Below are positions 2,897 through 54,868 of a stretch of DNA of 64,000 nt, in pieces. The notes below the pieces were generated by a model, which was not told the origin of the DNA, did not search any database, and saw only the letters and a list, made by a program, of their open reading frames with translations. The DNA lies in assembly GCA_009840635.1 (NCBI GenBank), contig VXNL01000047.1, positions 510 through 64,509 on the forward strand. Direction: 5' to 3'. The position numbers and the translations under genes were made by a program. Numbering within the stretch: position 1 is the first letter of the stretch; every line of letters begins with the position of its first letter. This DNA is from Acidobacteriota bacterium (GTDB lineage Bacteria; Acidobacteriota; Vicinamibacteria; Marinacidobacterales; Marinacidobacteraceae).

Positions 2897-4204
2897 ATGC
2901 CTCTATTCGCTCGCCGTTTCGGCCACATGGGCACCGAAAACGCCTTCAAGATCGGGGAAGACATGGCCCGCGCCCGGGCGCGCGGCGTGGATGTCATTCC
3001 GTTCACCATCGGCGAGCCCGACTTCGACAGCGCCCCGCACATCAACGAAGCGGGGATCGCGGCGATCCGGGCCGGAGACACCCACTACACCGATCCCGCC
3101 GGGATCGCGCCGCTCCGGGAAGCGCTCGCCGCCTACGTATCCCGGACGCGCGGAATCGAGGTCACGGCGGACCGGATCATCATCCTCCCGGGGGCGAAAC
3201 CCGCGATCGGCTACACGATGATGGCCTACGTGGACCCCGGCGACGAGGTGATCTATCCAAGTCCCGGGTTCCCGATCTACGAGTCGTGGGTCACCTACCT
3301 CGGGGGGGTGCCGAAACCGCTCGTCCTCCGGGAGGAGCGGGGCTTCTCCTTCACCGTGGACGACCTGGACCGTCTGCTCACCGAGAGGACGAAGGTCCTG
3401 ATGCTGTGCTCGCCTTCGAATCCCACGGGCGGCGTGCTTCCAAGGAGCCTGCTCGAGGAGGTCGCCGCTTTGGTCAAGGAGCGGGGCCGTCCGGACATCC
3501 GCATCTACTCGGACGAGATCTACGAGCACATCACCTTCGACGGCTTCGAGCACACCTCGATGGCTTCCCTGCCGGGCATGGACCGGCACACGATCATCGC
3601 GAGCGGGCACTCCAAGGGTTACGCGATGACCGGCTGGAGGCTCGGCTGGTGCGTACTTCCCACCGCGGAAGAAGCCCTCCGGTTCAAGCAGATCAACATC
3701 AACACGGTGAGCTGCGTCCCTCCCTTCATCCAGCAGGCCGCCCGCGAGGCGCTCGAGAACCCGAAGACCTGGGAGGTGGTGGGCTCGATGGTCGCCGAGT
3801 TCAAGCGGCGGCGCGACTACGTCGTGCCGGCGCTGAACGCCATCCCCGGGATCACCTGCGCGAATCCCCTCGGGGCCTTCTACGTCTTTCCGAACATCAC
3901 GGGCGTCTGCGAGTCCCTCGGCGCCAACGCGCACTTCGAGTCGCTGCCCGATTCCCTGAAGGCGAGCACCAGCCCGGCGACCCTGATTTCCCGGTTCCTC
4001 CTCTACTACCACGGGGTCGCCCTGGTCGACCGCCGCAGCTTCGGCGTGATCGGCAGCGAGGGACAGAACTTCCTGCGGCTCTCCTACGCGGCGGACATGG
4101 ACTCGATCCGCGAAGGCATCCGGCGGATCGCCGCCGGGGTCGCCGACCACGACGGGTTCGCCCGCTTCCTCAACGATCAAACCGCCCTGGGACTTGCCGC
4201 ATGA
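2897..4204 (+). CDS. pyridoxal-phosphate-dependent aminotransferase, class I/II (aspartate/aromatic aminotransferase-like)
   Basis: 435 aa. Family motifs are present: GEPDF, CSPSNPTG and the SGHSKGYAMTGWRLGW lysine region. Confidence 0.9.
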   Translation: MPLFARRFGHMGTENAFKIGEDMARARARGVDVIPFTIGEPDFDSAPHINEAGIAAIRAGDTHYTDPAGIAPLREALAAYVSRTRGIEVTADRIIILPGAKPAIGYTMMAYVDPGDEVIYPSPGFPIYESWVTYLGGVPKPLVLREERGFSFTVDDLDRLLTERTKVLMLCSPSNPTGGVLPRSLLEEVAALVKERGRPDIRIYSDEIYEHITFDGFEHTSMASLPGMDRHTIIASGHSKGYAMTGWRLGWCVLPTAEEALRFKQININTVSCVPPFIQQAAREALENPKTWEVVGSMVAEFKRRRDYVVPALNAIPGITCANPLGAFYVFPNITGVCESLGANAHFESLPDSLKASTSPATLISRFLLYYHGVALVDRRSFGVIGSEGQNFLRLSYAADMDSIREGIRRIAAGVADHDGFARFLNDQTALGLAA

Positions 4205-5223
4205 GCCGCATCTTCGTTACCCGCCCCATCCCCGAAGCCGGCCTCGCCATCCTGCGCGCCGCGGCCGAGGTGGAAGTGGCGCCCACCGCCGACGGCGATT
4301 CGACTCCCCGGGACCAGGTGCTCGCCGGCGCCCGGAGCGCCGACGTCCACGTCTCCCTGTTGACCGAGGCTGTGGACCGGGAACTCATGGAGTCCGCCCC
4401 GCGGCTGCTCGGGGTGGCCAACTACGCCGTCGGCTTCAACAACGTGGATGTGGCCGCGGCGACCGAACTCGGTCTGCCCATCACCAACACCCCCGGCGTC
4501 CTCACCGACACGACCGCGGATCTGGCGTGGACGCTGCTGATGTCAGTCGCGCGCCGGGTGGTTCCGGCGGACGCCTACATGCGGGGCGGCCGGTACCGGA
4601 TCTGGGGGCCGTCGCTGATGCTGGGCGCCGACATCAGCCCCGGCGGCAACGAGCGCCGGAAGGTGCTCGGGGTCGTCGGCTTCGGGCGGATCGGACAGGC
4701 GATGCACCGGCGGGCGCAGGGGTTCGACATGGACGTGCTGGCCTTCGATCCGCCGATGAAGGCGATCATCGAGGCCCGCCCGGACGTGGAATACGCCGAG
4801 TTCGACGACCTGCTCGCGCGCAGCGATTTCGTGACGATCCACACCGACCTCAATCCCTCGACGCACCACCTCTTCGACGCGGCGGCCTTCGCCCGGATGA
4901 AGAAGAGCGCGATCCTCATCAATAGCGCACGGGGTCCCGTGGTCGACGAAGCGGCCCTCGTCGATGCCCTCAAGTCCGGCGAGATCGGGGGGGCGGGGCT
5001 CGACGTCTTCGAGCACGAGCCGGCGTTCCATCCGGGACTCGCCGAGTGCGACAACGTGGTGATGCTGCCCCACATCGCGAGCGGCAGCGTGGCGACGCGG
5101 GACCGCATGGCCACCATGTGCGCCGAGAACGCGGTGGCCCACCTGAACCGGCAGCGCGCGCCGAACTGCGTGAACCCGGAGGTTTACGACACGGAGGCGT
5201 ACCGGCGGCGAACATCCCGGTAG
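4201..5223 (+). CDS. D-isomer-specific 2-hydroxyacid dehydrogenase (glyoxylate/hydroxypyruvate reductase-like)
   Basis: ATG at 4201 overlaps the aminotransferase stop (ATGA). Motifs: GVVGFGRIGQAM Rossmann fold, NSARGPVVDEAAL, GLDVFEHEP. The long ORF 3286..5223 is an out-of-frame upstream artefact. Confidence 0.9.
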   Translation: MSRIFVTRPIPEAGLAILRAAAEVEVAPTADGDSTPRDQVLAGARSADVHVSLLTEAVDRELMESAPRLLGVANYAVGFNNVDVAAATELGLPITNTPGVLTDTTADLAWTLLMSVARRVVPADAYMRGGRYRIWGPSLMLGADISPGGNERRKVLGVVGFGRIGQAMHRRAQGFDMDVLAFDPPMKAIIEARPDVEYAEFDDLLARSDFVTIHTDLNPSTHHLFDAAAFARMKKSAILINSARGPVVDEAALVDALKSGEIGGAGLDVFEHEPAFHPGLAECDNVVMLPHIASGSVATRDRMATMCAENAVAHLNRQRAPNCVNPEVYDTEAYRRRTSR

Positions 5224-47308: not shown

Positions 47309-50300
47309 TTACCTTCCGGTGGGGCTGATTTCCTCGGCAAGCTCCCGGAACCGGCAGAAGGCATTGGCCAGCCGCATCTGGTGCGGCGTCTTGCAGTCGG
47401 GAAAAAAGAGTTCCGGGCTCGCGACCACCACTGCGAGGCAGCGGGCGCGCGAGGTGGCCACGTTGAGGCGGTTCAGCGAGTAGAGGAAGTCCATCCCTCG
47501 CGGGGCGGCGTCCGGCGTCGAGGTGGCGAGCGAGTAGAAGACCACCGGGGCTTCCTGTCCCTGGAACTTGTCCACGGTTCCCACCCGAGCCCGTCCGTCG
47601 AGGATCCCGGCGAGGCGGTCCACCTGGGCGTTGTAGGGGGCGACGATCAGGATGTCCTCCGGGGTGATCCGCCGGGCCACTCCGCCGGCGTCCGTCCAGG
47701 AAGCGGCATCGAGCAGCCCGGCGACCAGCGACGCGATGCGTTCGGCCTCTTCCGGCGACTCGCGCTGGTTGCCGTCGTGCTCGACGGGGACGAAACGGAG
47801 TCCGGCGCCAGGGAGCGGACCTTCGGTGATCGCCTGCCGCTCCAGTCCGGGCCGCGCCCCGAGTCGGCCGTCGTAGAAGAGTTCCGAGGTGAACCGGCCG
47901 ATCTCGGGGTGCATCCGCCAGGTGTGGTCGAGGAAGAGGCCGCGTTCCGGTGGAATCGTCTTCTCCTCACCGAGCAGGTGCCCGAGCGCCGAGGCGGACG
48001 ATCCCTCCGGATGGATCCCCTGGGTGACCTGATCGAGTTGGCGCGGATCGCCCAGCAACACGAGGCTCTCGGCGGCCGGCGCGGAGGTGAGCGCGCCCGC
48101 GAGGGAGAACTGTCCGGCCTCGTCCACCACCAGTACGTCCACCGCGTCCTGCATGTCCTCCCGCGCCCAGACCCAGGTCGTGCCCGCGATCAGCCGCACA
48201 TCGGGGTCTCTGACGGCGTCGACCGCCTTTCCGGAACCCGCCTTCCGTTCGATGCGGGGATCGGCGCAGCCCGCGTGCGAGACGATCTGAACTCCCTGGA
48301 ACGTGACGCCCTCCTCATCGGCGGCGGCGCAGACCTGGTCGAGCAGGTTGGTGATGACCTGGTGGCTCTGCGCCGTCACCCCCACCCGCCGGTCGGCCGC
48401 CAGGAGCGCGGTGATGACGCGGGCGCCGAGGTAGGTCTTGCCGCTTCCCGGCGGCCCCTGCACCGGCAGCACCTCCCGGTCGAGATCGAGCGCGAGGCGC
48501 CTGGCCGCGTGAACCAGGTCTTCCCCGGGCTGTAGCAGGGGTGTGCCGTTGCCGCCGTTTCGCGGCGGAACCCGCCGGAGCAGATCGAACGCGGCGCGCC
48601 GCGGGTGGCCGTCCGGGAATCCACCCTCGGCAACCAGCTCGCCGAGACGGAACAGGGAATCGCGCATCGTGCGGGTGGGCAGAACGTCCACGGGGACAAG
48701 CGCCCCTGGATGGGGCTGCTGCACCTTCTGGCGGCTGCGCTTCAGGATCAGCGCGTCCTCGGTCATCCCGAAGACCTCGCCCGGCGACGCCCCCGTCGCG
48801 GGGTCGCGGACGCTCGTGCCGACGTCGATTCCATGGTCCTGGGGCGGAAACCGGTAGCGGTGGAGTACGGACTGCTTCTCGGGACCGATCTCCGCCTCGA
48901 ACGTCAGACCACCCAGCGTCGTCCGTTCCTCGAAGAGTTGCTCGGCATCCAGCCCGCAGAGGTGGAAGAACTCCCACCATGCCGACTTGTCCTCCCGCCG
49001 GTGGTAGTCGAGGAGGTATCTCAGGAGTTGCCGAGCCTCGGATTCGTCCGGTGGACAGTCGGACACCAGGCGCGTTCCAAGGTGTTCGACCCGCGCCGCG
49101 GCCTCGCCCTGCTCGTGTTCCTTTTCCGGCGCGATCTCGACGGTTCGGCGCCGCCGCGGGCCGATCTCGCTGGTGAGTTCCCGGCGGAGGTCCTCGAGCC
49201 AGCCGTGGAGCGCCAGCGTGGAAAGGCAATCCTCGCGGTTGTAACGCCGGACGACCTCGAGGTCGCCCGGTTCCGCCCGGCCGCCCGAGTCCAGTGCGGC
49301 ATCCGTCCGGGCACGCGCCCGGATGGACTCGACGAGGTCCTGTTTCCGGGTGAACCCGTAAAACCGTTCCATCTCCTTGATGGAGTAGCTCTCCACCGAC
49401 GCAACCAGCCCCTGCCGGACCACCTGGAGGAGGTCCACGAACACCTGGTGGCGAAGGAGCACGTCCATCGCGTCCTCGCGGCTCGCGTAGCGGCTCATGA
49501 GGCGCTTCAGCGCCCCTGTCTCGTAGCCCCCGTAGTGGTAGATGTGGAGACCTCCGAACTGTTCCCGGCGTTCGGCCACCAGGTCCATGAAGGACTCGAA
49601 GACCTCGCGCTCTCCGCCGCGGTCGAAAGCCCAGCGGTCGTCATAGTCACCGTCCCGATCCACGAAGCCGAACAGGTACTCGAGCCCGCCGTCCGTGGTC
49701 GGCCGGGAACTCTCGATGTCGAAGAAGAGATCACCTTCGGAGGGTTCGGGGAGCGCCAGCAGACCGCGGTCCTCCTCCGGCGGTGCGGTCAGATCCCGAA
49801 AGGGCCGGCCCGACGCGCGCTCGGTGAGCTGCGCCTTCGCTTGGCGATGGATGCGCTTCAGTGAAGCTGGTTGGACGCCGTCGAGCGGCGGGTCGAGGGG
49901 CAGGGCGACCCCGGCCAGAGCCGCCAGGGTCGTGATGCCGCGGTCCTCCAGGCGCTGGCGCTGGTGCCGGGAGGCTCCGGCAACGAGCGAGAGATGGTCA
50001 TCCGTCCGTCGCCGATCGCGGCACACCTGGTTCCAGTCGCAGCGGGGACACAGGTCCACGGGCTCCGGATAGGTCGGCCCCGGGTCGGCGCAATGGCCCT
50101 CGAACTGGCGCCTCAGCGCGCGCTCGAACGCCGCGAAGTCCGCAACGCGAAAAGGCTCGAGCTCGCCGGCGCCGCCGAGCGCGAGGTGCATTTCGACTGG
50201 CGCCGTTCCCTGCACACGCTCCAGCAGCCACGAATACACCGCGATCTGGAGGACGGCGTCCGCCTTCGCGACCGTGGCGAGCTTGGCGTCCACCACCTCG

Positions 50301-50689
50301 TAGGACCAGTCACCGAGCGCGCTCGGGCGCGGGGCCCGAACCAGGAAATCGGGGTAGCCGCCCCACTTCCCACGGCCGAGCCGCCCCTGGTGGATCACCT
50401 CCACGCCGCGCCGCATAGCGTCGAGGGTCCGCTCGTTTCGTTCCGCGAAACCCTCGGACGCGCCGATCTCCTCGACCGTGAACCCCTCCATCCGGTATCG
50501 CTCGAGCATTCGGGCCTCGTGCTCCCGCCCGGCCTCGGCCAGCGCGTCGCGGCGGGGGTCTTCGAAGATGAGTGGTGGGGACCTCTCGCCGAGCTTGACC
50601 CCGCGGTCGAGGCTCGTCAGGTGGCGGCAGGCGAGGAACCGGCTGAGATCGGTGGGAGCGAAGAAGAGTTTGCCGTCCCTCTGGCGCAT
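47309..50689 (-). CDS. RecB-like (TM0106/Cas4-type PD-(D/E)xK, Cys-cluster) nuclease fused to an SF1B Upf1/Dna2-like helicase; Nhi-like architecture
   Basis: 1126 aa. The N-terminal ~450 aa have DAKL, QIAVY and a C..CPRCDWNQVC Cys cluster. The C-terminal ~500 aa have Walker A GPPGSGKT, VVDEAGQ, LLGDPRQL, RMHPEIGRFTSELFY, DKFQGQE and NVATSRAR. Confidence 0.85.
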   Translation of the reverse strand: MRQRDGKLFFAPTDLSRFLACRHLTSLDRGVKLGERSPPLIFEDPRRDALAEAGREHEARMLERYRMEGFTVEEIGASEGFAERNERTLDAMRRGVEVIHQGRLGRGKWGGYPDFLVRAPRPSALGDWSYEVVDAKLATVAKADAVLQIAVYSWLLERVQGTAPVEMHLALGGAGELEPFRVADFAAFERALRRQFEGHCADPGPTYPEPVDLCPRCDWNQVCRDRRRTDDHLSLVAGASRHQRQRLEDRGITTLAALAGVALPLDPPLDGVQPASLKRIHRQAKAQLTERASGRPFRDLTAPPEEDRGLLALPEPSEGDLFFDIESSRPTTDGGLEYLFGFVDRDGDYDDRWAFDRGGEREVFESFMDLVAERREQFGGLHIYHYGGYETGALKRLMSRYASREDAMDVLLRHQVFVDLLQVVRQGLVASVESYSIKEMERFYGFTRKQDLVESIRARARTDAALDSGGRAEPGDLEVVRRYNREDCLSTLALHGWLEDLRRELTSEIGPRRRRTVEIAPEKEHEQGEAAARVEHLGTRLVSDCPPDESEARQLLRYLLDYHRREDKSAWWEFFHLCGLDAEQLFEERTTLGGLTFEAEIGPEKQSVLHRYRFPPQDHGIDVGTSVRDPATGASPGEVFGMTEDALILKRSRQKVQQPHPGALVPVDVLPTRTMRDSLFRLGELVAEGGFPDGHPRRAAFDLLRRVPPRNGGNGTPLLQPGEDLVHAARRLALDLDREVLPVQGPPGSGKTYLGARVITALLAADRRVGVTAQSHQVITNLLDQVCAAADEEGVTFQGVQIVSHAGCADPRIERKAGSGKAVDAVRDPDVRLIAGTTWVWAREDMQDAVDVLVVDEAGQFSLAGALTSAPAAESLVLLGDPRQLDQVTQGIHPEGSSASALGHLLGEEKTIPPERGLFLDHTWRMHPEIGRFTSELFYDGRLGARPGLERQAITEGPLPGAGLRFVPVEHDGNQRESPEEAERIASLVAGLLDAASWTDAGGVARRITPEDILIVAPYNAQVDRLAGILDGRARVGTVDKFQGQEAPVVFYSLATSTPDAAPRGMDFLYSLNRLNVATSRARCLAVVVASPELFFPDCKTPHQMRLANAFCRFRELAEEISPTGR

Positions 50690-50893
50690 CGGCGGGCGCA
50701 GTGTACGGATCGGCCGGCGAGCCCGCCCGGTCGGCGCAAACTTCAGGAGCGGTCCGCGCCCGGAGGCTCCCAGAGCCGGCGGATCGGCTCTGCGTACAGA
50801 CGCTCACCAAACCGGGGCGGTCGTCTCCCCGGCCTAAAGGACCATCCCGTCTGCGCGCTCCACAACGAGATCCACCACCACGCCGTCCTGGAC

Positions 50894-50956
50894 GTCGGCA
50901 GATTGCAAGTGTCGGGTGCGGCTGAATGAAAAAGTTACGGTCGGCAGACTGAAAGT
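50894..50956. repeat. two imperfect 17-bp direct repeats (GTCGGCAGAtTGcAAGT and GTCGGCAGAcTGaAAGT) in an AT-richer island
   Basis: Read at 50894-50910 and 50940-50956. They sit in the 409-nt gap between the nuclease-helicase start and the ParE locus. Local AT content is clearly above the window average. Confidence 0.35.
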
Positions 50957-51098
50957 TGACGGCCAAGTGAGCCGCAAGCGAAGTCAATGGAAGGCGACAC
51001 CGCCCTGAACACCTCCCCATGCCTGAGTGCCGGACCCTCAGACCGGCTCCACGGCTAGCGGCCGGCACGCCACCCACCCCGTGCCGAGGCGGTCGAGG

Positions 51099-51392
51099 CT
51101 ACTGCCGGCCAGCCCAGTAGGTGGGTCTTCGTTTCGTGTGCATGGTGGCGAGGACCCGAAGGTGGTCGCCGGTCACCCTGTAGAGGACGGCATACGGAAA
51201 ACCCCCGGCGAGTTGCCGACGGATCTCTTCTCGTACGACTCGGCCCGCGTCCGGAAACGCGCGAACGGACTCCGCGCACGTCTCGACCGCGGCCAGGAAC
51301 AGCGATCCCAACCCGGCACTTCGGGTCTCGTACTAGTGCGCCGCCTCCGCGAGTTCGAGCTCGGCCAGACGGTGAAACGAGAGTTCTCGCAA
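51099..51392 (-). pseudogene. parE: ParE/RelE-family toxin disrupted by an in-frame amber stop (TAG at about 51333-51335)
   Basis: The ORF track gives only 70 aa (51099..51311), matching a ParE C-terminus (FPYAVLYRVTGDHLRVLATMH). The same frame continues upstream as LRELSFHRLAELELAEAAH*YETRSAG, a typical ParE N-terminus, broken by TAG where a conserved Tyr is expected. The antitoxin ORF lies in the same frame directly upstream. Confidence 0.65.
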
Positions 51393-51608
51393 CTAGGCGA
51401 GTTGTTGCCGTAACTCTTTGAAGACCTGCTCTGCCGAGCGGTCCGTCGTTTCCGGTTCCAAGTCGCGTCTGGCGGCCTGTTCCGCCCAGATTTGCTCGTT
51501 CTGCTCGACCGTGAGTTCGTCCAGACTCCGGAGGAGCTTTCCGGCCAATTGTGCGCGTGACCTCGGGCTGAGCTTGAGGGCCTCCGCCACGAGGTGGTCG
51601 AGTTGCAT
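51393..51608 (-). CDS. type II antitoxin, putative addiction-module component (ParD-like / TIGR02574-like)
   Basis: 71 aa ending 81 nt upstream of the ParE remnant, with sequence LSPRSRAQLAGKLLRSLDE... Confidence 0.6.
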   Translation of the reverse strand: MQLDHLVAEALKLSPRSRAQLAGKLLRSLDELTVEQNEQIWAEQAARRDLEPETTDRSAEQVFKELRQQLA

Positions 51609-51699
51609 GCACCAAGCGTATCCGTCCGGGACACGCCTTGTTCGCCCCTACTCGGTGATATAACGCCGAACCGCCCAACCCCCCACCCAAGGAGGCGTC

Positions 51700-53652
51700 A
51701 TGGCGAACGGATCCGGCAGCACCCGCGAGTTCACGCTCCGGGCACTTCTCCTCGGCCTGTTCATGGCCGTCGTGCTGGGAGCGGCGAACGCCTATCTCGG
51801 CATCCGCGCTGGCCAGACGGTCGCGGCCACCTTCCCGGCGGCGGTCGTCTCCATGGTCGTCATCCGGGGTCTCTTCAAGGGCAGCCTGCTCGAAGAGAAC
51901 ATCGCCCGCACCACGGCCTCGGTGGGAGAGGCGCTGGCCGCCGGGGCGATCTTCACGTTGCCGGCGTTCCTGATGGCGGGCGCCTGGGAGGAGTTCAACT
52001 ACTGGGAGAGCACCCTGCTGATGCTCATCGGCGGTCTGCTCGGCATCCTGTTCGTCGTCATCCTGCGGCGGAGCATGGTGACCGACCCCGAACTCCCGTT
52101 CCCCGAGTCGGTCGCCGCGGCCGAGATCCACCGTGCCGGAAAGGGTGCGAGCGGGGGCCGGCTGCTCTTCCAGATGATGGGGGTCGGCGCGCTGACCGAG
52201 GTCCTCAAGAACTCGAAGGGGATCCAGCTCTTCACCGACCGCATTTCGGGGGCCCTGGGGTACGGGTCCTTCCAGGGATCGGTCGCCGTCGGGGGCCAGT
52301 CCTTCGGGGCGGCGGCCCAGCCCGGGGTGCTGCCGTTCTCGACACCCGCGGCTTCGCCCGCCTACCTCGGGGTGGGCTACATCATCGGGTTCCGGCTCTC
52401 GGCGCTCGTCTTCTCCGGCGGGGTCTTCGCCTGGTGGTTCATGATCCCGGCGGTCCTCTTCTTCAATCCGGAGTTCGCCGACGCGGGAAGGCTGGCGGCG
52501 GCGGGCGCCGACTGGACGGCGGTCAGCAGCGTGGTCTGGGCTGAACTCGTGCGGCCGATCGCGGTGGGAGCGATGATCGCCGGCGCCATCTGGACGCTGC
52601 TCCGGATGCGGAAGTCGCTCGGCGAAGGTCTGAAGCGGTCCATCGGGGAGTTGAAGACCGGGCACCCGGCCGGATCGGGCGACGAGAAGGACCGCGACAT
52701 CCCCTTCAGCTGGACGACGGCGGGAGTCGTGGCACTCATCATCCCGACCTTCTTCCTCTACAACTACTACACCGGGCAGCCGCTCGGGGCGCTCGGTTCG
52801 GCGATCGTGATGATCGTGGCCGGGTTCTTCTTCTCGGCGGTGGCCGGCTACCTCGTCGGCGTGGTCGGGAGCTCCTCGAACCCGGTCTCCGGACTCACGA
52901 TCTCGACATTGCTGCTGGCGGCGCTGCTGATGACCTTCCTAGGAGTCACCGGAACGGAGGGCGTGACCGCGGTGCTGGGGGTGGCGGCCGTCGTCTGCTG
53001 CGCCTGCGCGGTTGCCGGGGACATGCTGCAGGACCTGAAGGTGGGTCAGATTCTCGGCGGCACCCCGTTCCGCATGGAATGGGCCGAGATCATCGGCGTG
53101 GTCTTCGCGTCGCTGTTCCTGGTGCTGCCGATGATGCTGCTCCACCAGGGAGACATCGCGGCGGGCGGCATCGGGATCGGCGGCGAAGAGCTTCCGGCTC
53201 CGCAGGCGGGGCTCATGGCGCTGCTTTCCCAGGGCATCGTGGGCGGCGACATGCGCTGGCCGCTCGTGGTGTTCGGGATCGCGCTCTGCCTCTTCCTGAT
53301 CCTGATCCAAGCGCCCTCCCCAATGCTGATCGCGGTGGGGATGTACCTGCCGCTCCAGACGACCTTCGCGATCTTCGTCGGCGGTTTCTTCCGCTGGCTG
53401 AGCGACCGCCAGATGGCCAGGCTGCCGGCCGAACGCCGGACGCTCGGGGAAAGCGCCGGGACGCTCATCGCGTCCGGGCTCATCGCGGGCGAGGCGCTCA
53501 TGGGCGTCGGGCTCTCCGGGTTCGCGGTCGCGGAGTTCCAGTTGCCGATACTCGTGTCCGCGCCCTCCGGCATCCCGGGATTCCTGGTCTTCGTCGTGCT
53601 CGGCTGGTTCCTGATCCGGATCCCGCTCCGCCACGCGAAGGGGCAGGGTTGA
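51700..53652 (+). CDS. OPT-family oligopeptide transporter
   Basis: 650 aa with about 16 TM helices and OPT superfamily blocks. An AAGGAGG SD lies 5 nt upstream. Confidence 0.85.
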   Translation: MANGSGSTREFTLRALLLGLFMAVVLGAANAYLGIRAGQTVAATFPAAVVSMVVIRGLFKGSLLEENIARTTASVGEALAAGAIFTLPAFLMAGAWEEFNYWESTLLMLIGGLLGILFVVILRRSMVTDPELPFPESVAAAEIHRAGKGASGGRLLFQMMGVGALTEVLKNSKGIQLFTDRISGALGYGSFQGSVAVGGQSFGAAAQPGVLPFSTPAASPAYLGVGYIIGFRLSALVFSGGVFAWWFMIPAVLFFNPEFADAGRLAAAGADWTAVSSVVWAELVRPIAVGAMIAGAIWTLLRMRKSLGEGLKRSIGELKTGHPAGSGDEKDRDIPFSWTTAGVVALIIPTFFLYNYYTGQPLGALGSAIVMIVAGFFFSAVAGYLVGVVGSSSNPVSGLTISTLLLAALLMTFLGVTGTEGVTAVLGVAAVVCCACAVAGDMLQDLKVGQILGGTPFRMEWAEIIGVVFASLFLVLPMMLLHQGDIAAGGIGIGGEELPAPQAGLMALLSQGIVGGDMRWPLVVFGIALCLFLILIQAPSPMLIAVGMYLPLQTTFAIFVGGFFRWLSDRQMARLPAERRTLGESAGTLIASGLIAGEALMGVGLSGFAVAEFQLPILVSAPSGIPGFLVFVVLGWFLIRIPLRHAKGQG

Positions 53653-54105: not shown

Positions 54106-54510
54106 CTACTGGCGGAAGGGATCGAGCGTCGGGACGCCGAACGGCTCGAAGTCCCGGACGTTCCGGGTCACGACCGTCAGGCGGTGCACGTTTGCCGTGG
54201 CGGCAATCAGCGCGTCGGTGATGAGCGTGTCGGACTTGCGATGCATGAGGCGCGCCCATTCCCGGAACACCGGACCGTCCTGGGCCAGAACCTGGTACGT
54301 GGCGAGCACGCCGTCGAGCCAAGCCTCCAGGTCCCCCGCCTTGGCGGGGTCCTGTTCTCGCGTGATCTCGATGCCGGCCTGAATCTCACCGATCGTGACG
54401 CCGGACAGGTGGAGCCTCTCCGGTGAAACGTCCTGAATCCAGCCCAGGACCGCCGGGTGAGGCCGTGGGCGCCGTAACTCCGAAACGACGTTCGTGTCCA
54501 GCAGATACAC
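54106..54510 (-). CDS. vapC: type II toxin VapC (PIN-domain ribonuclease)
   Basis: 134 aa with an MYLLDTNVVSE PIN N-terminus and the conserved D...E...D...D acidic residues. Its start is 5 nt after the antitoxin stop. Confidence 0.85.
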   Translation of the reverse strand: MYLLDTNVVSELRRPRPHPAVLGWIQDVSPERLHLSGVTIGEIQAGIEITREQDPAKAGDLEAWLDGVLATYQVLAQDGPVFREWARLMHRKSDTLITDALIAATANVHRLTVVTRNVRDFEPFGVPTLDPFRQ

Positions 54511-54514
54511 CGGG

Positions 54515-54775
54515 TTACTCGAACCGGGGCGGCGGACGGCGGGCGAGTGGCCTGCGTTCCGGCGCGAGGGACTCGATGCGGGGCGCCGGCGCGAGGAGCA
54601 GCTCCTTCAAGTTCGGCTTCGTCGTTCGCTGCAGGCCTTCCCACTGCTCCATCGGCACAACCACCGCTGTCTCAACGCCTCTTCGAGTCACGACCTGGGG
54701 GCCCTCCGCCACGGCTTTTTCGAGCAGTTCGCTGAACCGCGCCTTGGCCGTCTGGACCTGCCACCGATTGCTCAT
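54515..54775 (-). CDS. type II antitoxin, Phd/YefM family (VapB partner)
   Basis: Internal Met start with sequence MSNRWQVQTAKARFSELLEKAVAEGPQVVTRRG. The 20 upstream codons of the ORF look non-coding. Confidence 0.75.
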   Translation of the reverse strand: MSNRWQVQTAKARFSELLEKAVAEGPQVVTRRGVETAVVVPMEQWEGLQRTTKPNLKELLLAPAPRIESLAPERRPLARRPPPRFE

Positions 54776-54868
54776 CGAATCCTCCGTGCGTATCGGACTA
54801 GACAGAAGACTAGTCCGATAAGGGCTTGAGCGCAAGCTCCGGTCCCCCGGAACGTCAGGGCCGCCGCC

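Follow-up and report, generated by a model that had tools for sequence, protein, structure and literature searches.

A parE pseudogene with a lineage-specific amber codon lies beside an intact PF09720-type antitoxin gene in an uncultured acidobacterium

The 64-kb stretch of acidobacterial DNA analysed here (the window) carries on its minus strand a small toxin-antitoxin cassette whose two genes occupy a single continuous reading frame; the frame is shared because the toxin start codon adjoins the antitoxin stop directly (TAG-TTG). Translated from 51608 to 51099, it reads MQLDHLVAEALKLSPRSRAQLAGKLLRSLDELTVEQNEQIWAEQAARRDLEPETTDRSAEQVFKELRQQLA-stop-LRELSFHRLAELELAEAAH-stop-YETRSAG LGSLFLAAVETC...TYWAGRQ-stop. 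The original prediction had described an antitoxin ORF and a ParE-like ORF lying in frame 81 nt apart, with an amber codon in the stretch between them; the spacing is exact (51392-51312), as is the translation that was quoted for the 81 nt, and re-reading the frame returns the in-frame TAG at 51335-51333. The locus is composed of the following features:

51608-51099, minus strand: continuous frame with three TAG codons inside
51609..51699, minus strand: presumed promoter region of the toxin-antitoxin operon, 91 bp, intergenic, assigned by position only
51393..51608, minus strand: antitoxin gene of the PF09720 'Unstab_antitox' type, 71 aa, ATG start, TAG stop at 51395-51393
51099..51392, minus strand: parE pseudogene, 97 codons plus a terminal TAG (51101-51099), start TTG at 51392-51390
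51333..51335, minus strand: in-frame amber TAG at toxin codon 20, within the predicted helix alpha1; base 51333 is the mutated one
51099..51311, minus strand: residual 70-aa ORF whose TTG start is toxin codon 28; all of helix alpha1 is absent

Nineteen sense codons lie between the toxin TTG at 51392-51390 and the amber codon, and the sole in-frame start codon after the stop is the TTG at 51311, 7 codons (21 nt) further on. On the other side of the cassette, an OPT transporter gene starts at 51700 on the plus strand and is divergent from the antitoxin gene, so placed that the intergenic region 51609..51699 would serve as the promoter of the toxin-antitoxin operon; no match to a sigma-70 consensus was found upstream of the antitoxin gene, and a terminator scan returned one terminator-like site, which is on the wrong strand and within chance expectation.

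The antitoxin gene is immediately upstream of, and co-oriented with, the ParE-family toxin frame. Its product scores 23.0 bits against PF09720, for which the cut-off is 23.3, and 12.9 bits against TIGR02574, for which it is 31.9; the 20 relatives aligned with it, whose genes all directly precede that of a ParE homologue, match PF09720 without exception (best E 3e-11). The window protein resembles the PF09720/TIGR02574 'putative addiction module component' antitoxins in its similar size of 71 aa, and the PF09720 antitoxins in its N-terminal motif (L-x-L-x-P-x-x-R-A-x-L-A-x-x-L-L-x-S-L) and in its position immediately upstream of a RelE/ParE-superfamily toxin; unlike them, it has a pseudogene as its cognate toxin and is now an orphan. 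In other genomes 81 homologous loci were identified, L091 and a further 80 that came from scanning one genome for each species, and in every one of them an antitoxin homologue precedes the toxin. That the antitoxin stays intact, as had been claimed, is borne out by its full length, by the retention of all 13 family-invariant columns, and by a 71-aa sequence that is identical in ten independent contigs. No solved structure was detectable for the antitoxin by sequence search.

The 97-aa toxin that the original prediction had reconstructed, with tyrosine restored at the stop, scores 35.7 bits against Pfam PF05016 (cut-off 23) and spans profile positions 2-88 of 89, fitting end to end the profile of the ParE toxins of ParDE type II systems. 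The 70-aa remnant alone scores 25.3 bits and reaches profile positions 28-88 only; the upstream 27 codons contribute roughly 10 bits to the match and complete the domain. The profile match and the alignment of homologues agree that these 27 codons are a ParE N-terminus, as had been proposed. A search of 5.8 billion protein clusters yielded thirteen homologues of 97-98 aa with 48-66% identity, together with the 70-aa remnant itself, and alignment of the toxin with its closest clade requires no indel. The toxin family profile also matches PDB entry 8c26_A, the M. tuberculosis ParE2, and the two align at the YY motif.

The fold of the window toxin was judged by proxy, from an AlphaFold2 model of the homologue P0002, which is 66-67% identical to it (pLDDT 80.1). 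The model places helix alpha1 at residues 6-24 and alpha2 at 28-45, followed by four strands within 51-85; this is the two-helix hairpin with an antiparallel sheet that is found in ParE toxins. In a Foldseek search with the model, the top 12 matches were without exception ParE-type toxins of toxin-antitoxin complexes (3kxe, 8c24, 8c26, 7ycs (PrpT), 6xrw, 5czf/5cw7 and 5ceg; TM about 0.64-0.70), and RelE ranked lower. Solved ParE examples include Caulobacter ParE1 (3KXE), M. tuberculosis ParE1 and ParE2 (8C24 and 8C26), P. aeruginosa ParE (6XRW), and E. coli O157 ParE2 (5CZF). The toxicity of ParE is classically a poisoning of DNA gyrase that the cognate antitoxin neutralises. As in ParDE systems, the window toxin gene is directly downstream of a small antitoxin gene; unlike them, the window has a PF09720-type protein, and not a ParD (RHH) antitoxin, as the partner, and a toxin frame that is broken at codon 20 and encodes no full-length ParE. 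An uninterrupted frame for the full ParE domain is absent from the window and from all ten independent contigs; the toxin ORF is a ParE-family pseudogene and not a ParE gene.

The amber codon was predicted to replace a conserved ParE tyrosine, and the position it occupies is aromatic in 80 of the 81 homologous loci, 68 loci having Y, 12 having F and one having S; the tyrosine is encoded by TAC in 50 loci and by TAT in 18. All 13 full-length homologues have EAA[HQR]YY[ED] at the site. The remaining 96 toxin codons are intact, with no second stop and no frameshift, and the frame keeps every one of the 33 family-invariant residues, including those of the C-terminal KRRPTYWAGR tail.

The antitoxin protein was found on 21 public contigs, ten of which we read: they come from ENA assemblies, two NCBI metagenome-assembled genomes, Logan assemblies built from four runs, and a separate project that contributed a 365-kb contig (labelled 54x). 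None of the ten departs from the window sequence in the 710 bp that span the locus, TAG included, so that a look at other strains for the TAC or TAT of an intact allele returns TAG throughout. The ten are not copies of one assembly, since each shows 0-9 SNPs relative to the window over 3.9-6.2 kb. Single-base errors do arise in metagenome-assembled genomes, and one of the homologous loci, L024, comes from an assembly of 1.2x coverage with probable errors in its antitoxin; a true TAC misread as TAG through a base-calling or consensus error would nevertheless have to have been made alike in samples, projects and assemblers that disagree at up to 9 SNPs elsewhere, and we regard an artefact of this kind as having next to no chance of being correct. 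The mutation looks fixed in the sampled population and, being common to all ten contigs, is older than the small strain diversity that was sampled. No intact toxin allele with more than 67% identity was present in the collection of 5.8 billion protein clusters, and a pattern search of JGI metagenome contigs for either allele (TAN) gave no match.

The direction of the change is apparent from two Acidobacteria metagenome-assembled genomes, L011 and L012, in which the orthologous locus is syntenic. In L011, which represents a sister species, the flanks are well conserved, with 92% nucleotide identity for the OPT gene upstream and 88% for the gene of a 1126-aa nuclease-helicase downstream, and the toxin is intact: its CAT TAC TAC GAG corresponds to CAC TAG TAC GAG in the window, and base 51333, on the minus strand, is G in the window and C in L011. 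Because L011 is intact and has TAC, the window TAG arose by TAC>TAG after the lineages split, and the claim of a single-base nonsense change stands. Codon 20 is a sense codon in all 81 other loci.

The TTG start of the toxin was considered as a second degenerative lesion and rejected, since L011 and L012, which is likewise intact, have the same TAG-TTG junction; the TTG is ancestral. The junction is TAG-ATG in L013-L017 and L091 and mostly TGA-ATG in the wider family, and the offset between antitoxin stop and toxin start is 0 in most of 73 loci, an abutment that would be the usual arrangement for translational coupling. Three residues, E55, Q60 and G63, were likewise set aside as extra inactivating substitutions: they differ from the 12 closest homologues, but intact sequences of the wider family vary at these positions.

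The state of the remnant indicates that the pseudogene is comparatively young, as judged from the sequence: it has acquired no second lesion, it retains all of the invariant residues, and its pairwise dN/dS against L011 is 0.22 (0.30 for the antitoxin). Of the two readings that the original prediction had left side by side, recent inactivation is upheld by these features, and tolerated read-through found no positive support. Relative-rate counts with four outgroups gave 16 window-specific and 10 L011-specific changes for the toxin, and 3 and 9, respectively, for the antitoxin; neither contrast is significant, and a relaxed constraint on the toxin remnant, with which the direction fits, is suggestive at most. 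The cassette with its promoter region is 73-77% identical in nucleotide sequence to L011 (about 76% for the cassette, and 73% for the intergenic region 51609..51699), as against 92% for the adjoining OPT gene, and the outgroup topology is uncertain because the cassette is so much more diverged than the flanks. Relaxed selection was therefore not adopted as a result from either the relative rates or dN/dS, which are non-significant and confounded by a cassette roughly three times more diverged than its flanks. Either fast evolution or replacement by a related cassette through recombination would account for this divergence.

The neighbourhood of the cassette also differs between the two lineages. 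Between the toxin and the helicase gene, L011 has about 1.3 kb (3298-4615) that is absent from the window and encodes an AAA_14/DUF4143 ATPase (PF13173 and PF13635; ORF at L011 3218-4717); in the window its place is taken by 232 unrelated nt (50855-51087). The toxin-antitoxin cassette is therefore part of a short variable islet with conserved genes on either side. Upstream of the nuclease-helicase gene, the 409-nt intergenic region contains a 17-nt direct repeat (50894-50910 and 50940-50956; GTCGGCAGATTGCAAGT and GTCGGCAGACTGAAAGT) whose copies are 46 nt apart, and a 12-nt inverted repeat (50912-50923 and 50970-50981) flanks it; the repeats at 50894-50981 may be a regulatory site. The 1126-aa protein itself (47309-50689, minus strand) combines RNase_H_2/RecB-like nuclease and superfamily-1 helicase domains, and its precomputed domain matches are AAA_11, AAA_12 and AAA_30. 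Just beyond the OPT gene, at 54106-54835 on the minus strand, is a second and apparently intact type II toxin-antitoxin pair, a Phd/YefM antitoxin (PF02604, 55.9 bits) followed by a PIN-domain toxin (PF01850, 55.5 bits), which is also present in the independent contigs.

The reading that we favour, and hold to be very probable, is that the locus is a chromosomal type II toxin-antitoxin cassette in which a PF09720-type antitoxin precedes a ParE-fold toxin, and that the cassette has entered the first stage of decay, with the toxin reduced to a pseudogene by the lineage-specific TAC>TAG change. A single C-to-G change converted Tyr20 of the toxin into a stop in the window lineage. Transcription of the operon would still start in the 91-bp divergent intergenic region that precedes the antitoxin gene, and the 71-aa antitoxin would still be made; coupled ribosomes would restart at the abutting TTG and terminate after 19 codons, leaving a product that extends no further than the first two-thirds of alpha1. 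The 77 codons beyond the stop would go untranslated, or would at most yield the 70-aa fragment without alpha1, which is unlikely to fold into the ParE core. The toxin would thus be functionally dead, with no active ParE formed and probably no selection on the remnant. The mutation has spread through all of the sampled population and is younger than the split from the sister species, whose toxin is still intact. The antitoxin may have stayed intact either because too little time has elapsed or because its loss would formerly have been lethal; we favour the youth of the lesion as the explanation for its persistence and consider continued use of the antitoxin less likely.

The amber codon could instead act as a reducer of dose, in that rare UAG read-through, or re-initiation at the TTG at 51311 to give a 70-aa fragment with some residual activity, would maintain a weakened but live module. 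Basal near-cognate read-through of UAG would occasionally restore a full-length ParE, and if tRNA-Tyr were the near-cognate decoder the ancestral protein would be recreated; an in-frame start codon is available just 7 codons past the stop, and the rest of the gene is preserved, down to its invariant residues and C-terminal tail, a state for which a young lesion accounts equally well. Programmed recoding sites are conserved among relatives. The stop at codon 20 is confined to this lineage and absent from the 81 other-genome loci, including the syntenic orthologue, a distribution contrary to that expected of programmed recoding. Within the window, TAG is the stop of 19 of the 49 coding-like ORFs, and it is read as a stop at this very locus, since the TAG of the window clade is matched in position by a TGA or TAA stop in the other antitoxins of the family. 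The +4 base after the amber codon is T, a context also found at 4 of the window's 19 ordinary TAG stops; the 64-kb window contains no tRNA genes, and on these grounds a reassigned TAG or a suppressor was rejected as far as the window extends. No Rfam motif was found in 50000-52500. An inverted repeat does lie at the gene junction (51380-51393 and 51404-51417), and as a coupling or recoding element it was rejected, its fold being no better than that of shuffled sequences (z = +0.45) and being unsupported by covariation among 7 relatives (covariation term +0.98). No Shine-Dalgarno-like sequence precedes the internal TTG, and the 70-aa product that this codon would give is predicted from the P0002 model to start exactly at alpha2, and so to lack alpha1 of the core of two helices and a beta-sheet. 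Nothing in the window sequence suggests read-through of the amber codon, and we consider an attenuated live toxin highly improbable. More doubtful still is an elaboration in which the amber codon is a dose valve, near-cognate decoding of UAG by tRNA-Tyr or tRNA-Gln, or re-initiation at the TTG, providing a trickle of ParE that the antitoxin buffers, so that the module would remain addictive or defensive and would have been fixed by selection and not by drift.

A further proposal concerns only why the antitoxin stays intact and is compatible with the pseudogene explanation: the orphan antitoxin may be retained by selection, either as a regulator or for anti-addiction against ParE toxins from mobile elements or from elsewhere in the genome. 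Such an anti-addiction role for orphan antitoxins is a published hypothesis, although the review that presents it says itself that the role remains to be demonstrated (PMC7354431). The complete set of family-invariant columns in the antitoxin fits this proposal, as do its fewer lineage-specific changes than the orthologue (3 vs 9) beside the larger number in the toxin (16 vs 10), a contrast that does not reach statistical significance. No paralogous ParE and no second antitoxin of the same kind were found in the 64-kb window, and a search for a mobile-element source of a related toxin returned plasmid matches of at most 38% identity and no phage matches, leaving no incoming toxin in sight; a young lesion, moreover, accounts for the intact antitoxin without selection. 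We judge retention by selection to be unlikely. Were the antitoxin shown to be maintained in this way, the anti-addiction hypothesis could be put to a natural test at this locus; nothing that we found points there.

The favoured reading, decay of the module beginning with the toxin, has counterparts both within the family and in the literature. Among the 81 loci, three other species of the ParE/PF09720 family, each represented by one assembly, have a broken toxin beside an intact antitoxin:

L059, about 3000-3290: toxin Gln19>TAG, in the codon adjacent to the window stop; antitoxin intact
L085, about 2406-2700: toxin Tyr67>stop; antitoxin intact
L060, about 2994-3290: toxin with an N-terminal frameshift; antitoxin intact

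A damaged antitoxin, on the other hand, is seen in only 2 of the 81 loci, the low-coverage L024 and L040, in which the antitoxin match is split. Chromosomal toxin-antitoxin modules decay toxin-first because loss of the toxin is harmless and loss of the antitoxin is not. Such decay has been described for ccdO157 in E. coli, for which PMC7167474 in the passage concerned cites Mine et al. 2009, in a survey of the chromosomal toxin-antitoxin systems of Photorhabdus (PMC13617665), and in Caulobacter, where a parE pseudogene has left an orphan ParD (PMC7354431). Like these documented cases, the window combines a toxin bearing a point nonsense lesion with an intact antitoxin, at a conserved chromosomal position and with an intact orthologue in a relative; the lesion is real, and it is derived, given the TAC of L011 and the lack of this stop from all other loci. 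Unlike them, the locus belongs to an uncultured acidobacterium that is known from metagenome assemblies alone, and its lesion appears to be fixed, not polymorphic, in the available samples. The window locus is ordinary: it represents the first step by which chromosomal toxin-antitoxin systems decay, one that has been described before.

These findings bear on how such loci are annotated. The 70-aa remnant is in the public databases as a protein (P0001) that NCBI names 'type II toxin-antitoxin system RelE/ParE family toxin [Acidobacteria bacterium]', and other gene callers omit it or call a spurious ORF on the opposite strand (L001 3196-3447). The toxin annotation of the remnant is misleading, and because the remnant is labelled as a toxin, such metagenome-assembled genomes are credited with more intact toxin-antitoxin systems than they contain. 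The antitoxin, for its part, is missed in some gene calls, and the practical value of the locus is in the correction of annotation. Its biological importance is small, and is that of a clean and well-dated example of the rule that these modules decay toxin-first.
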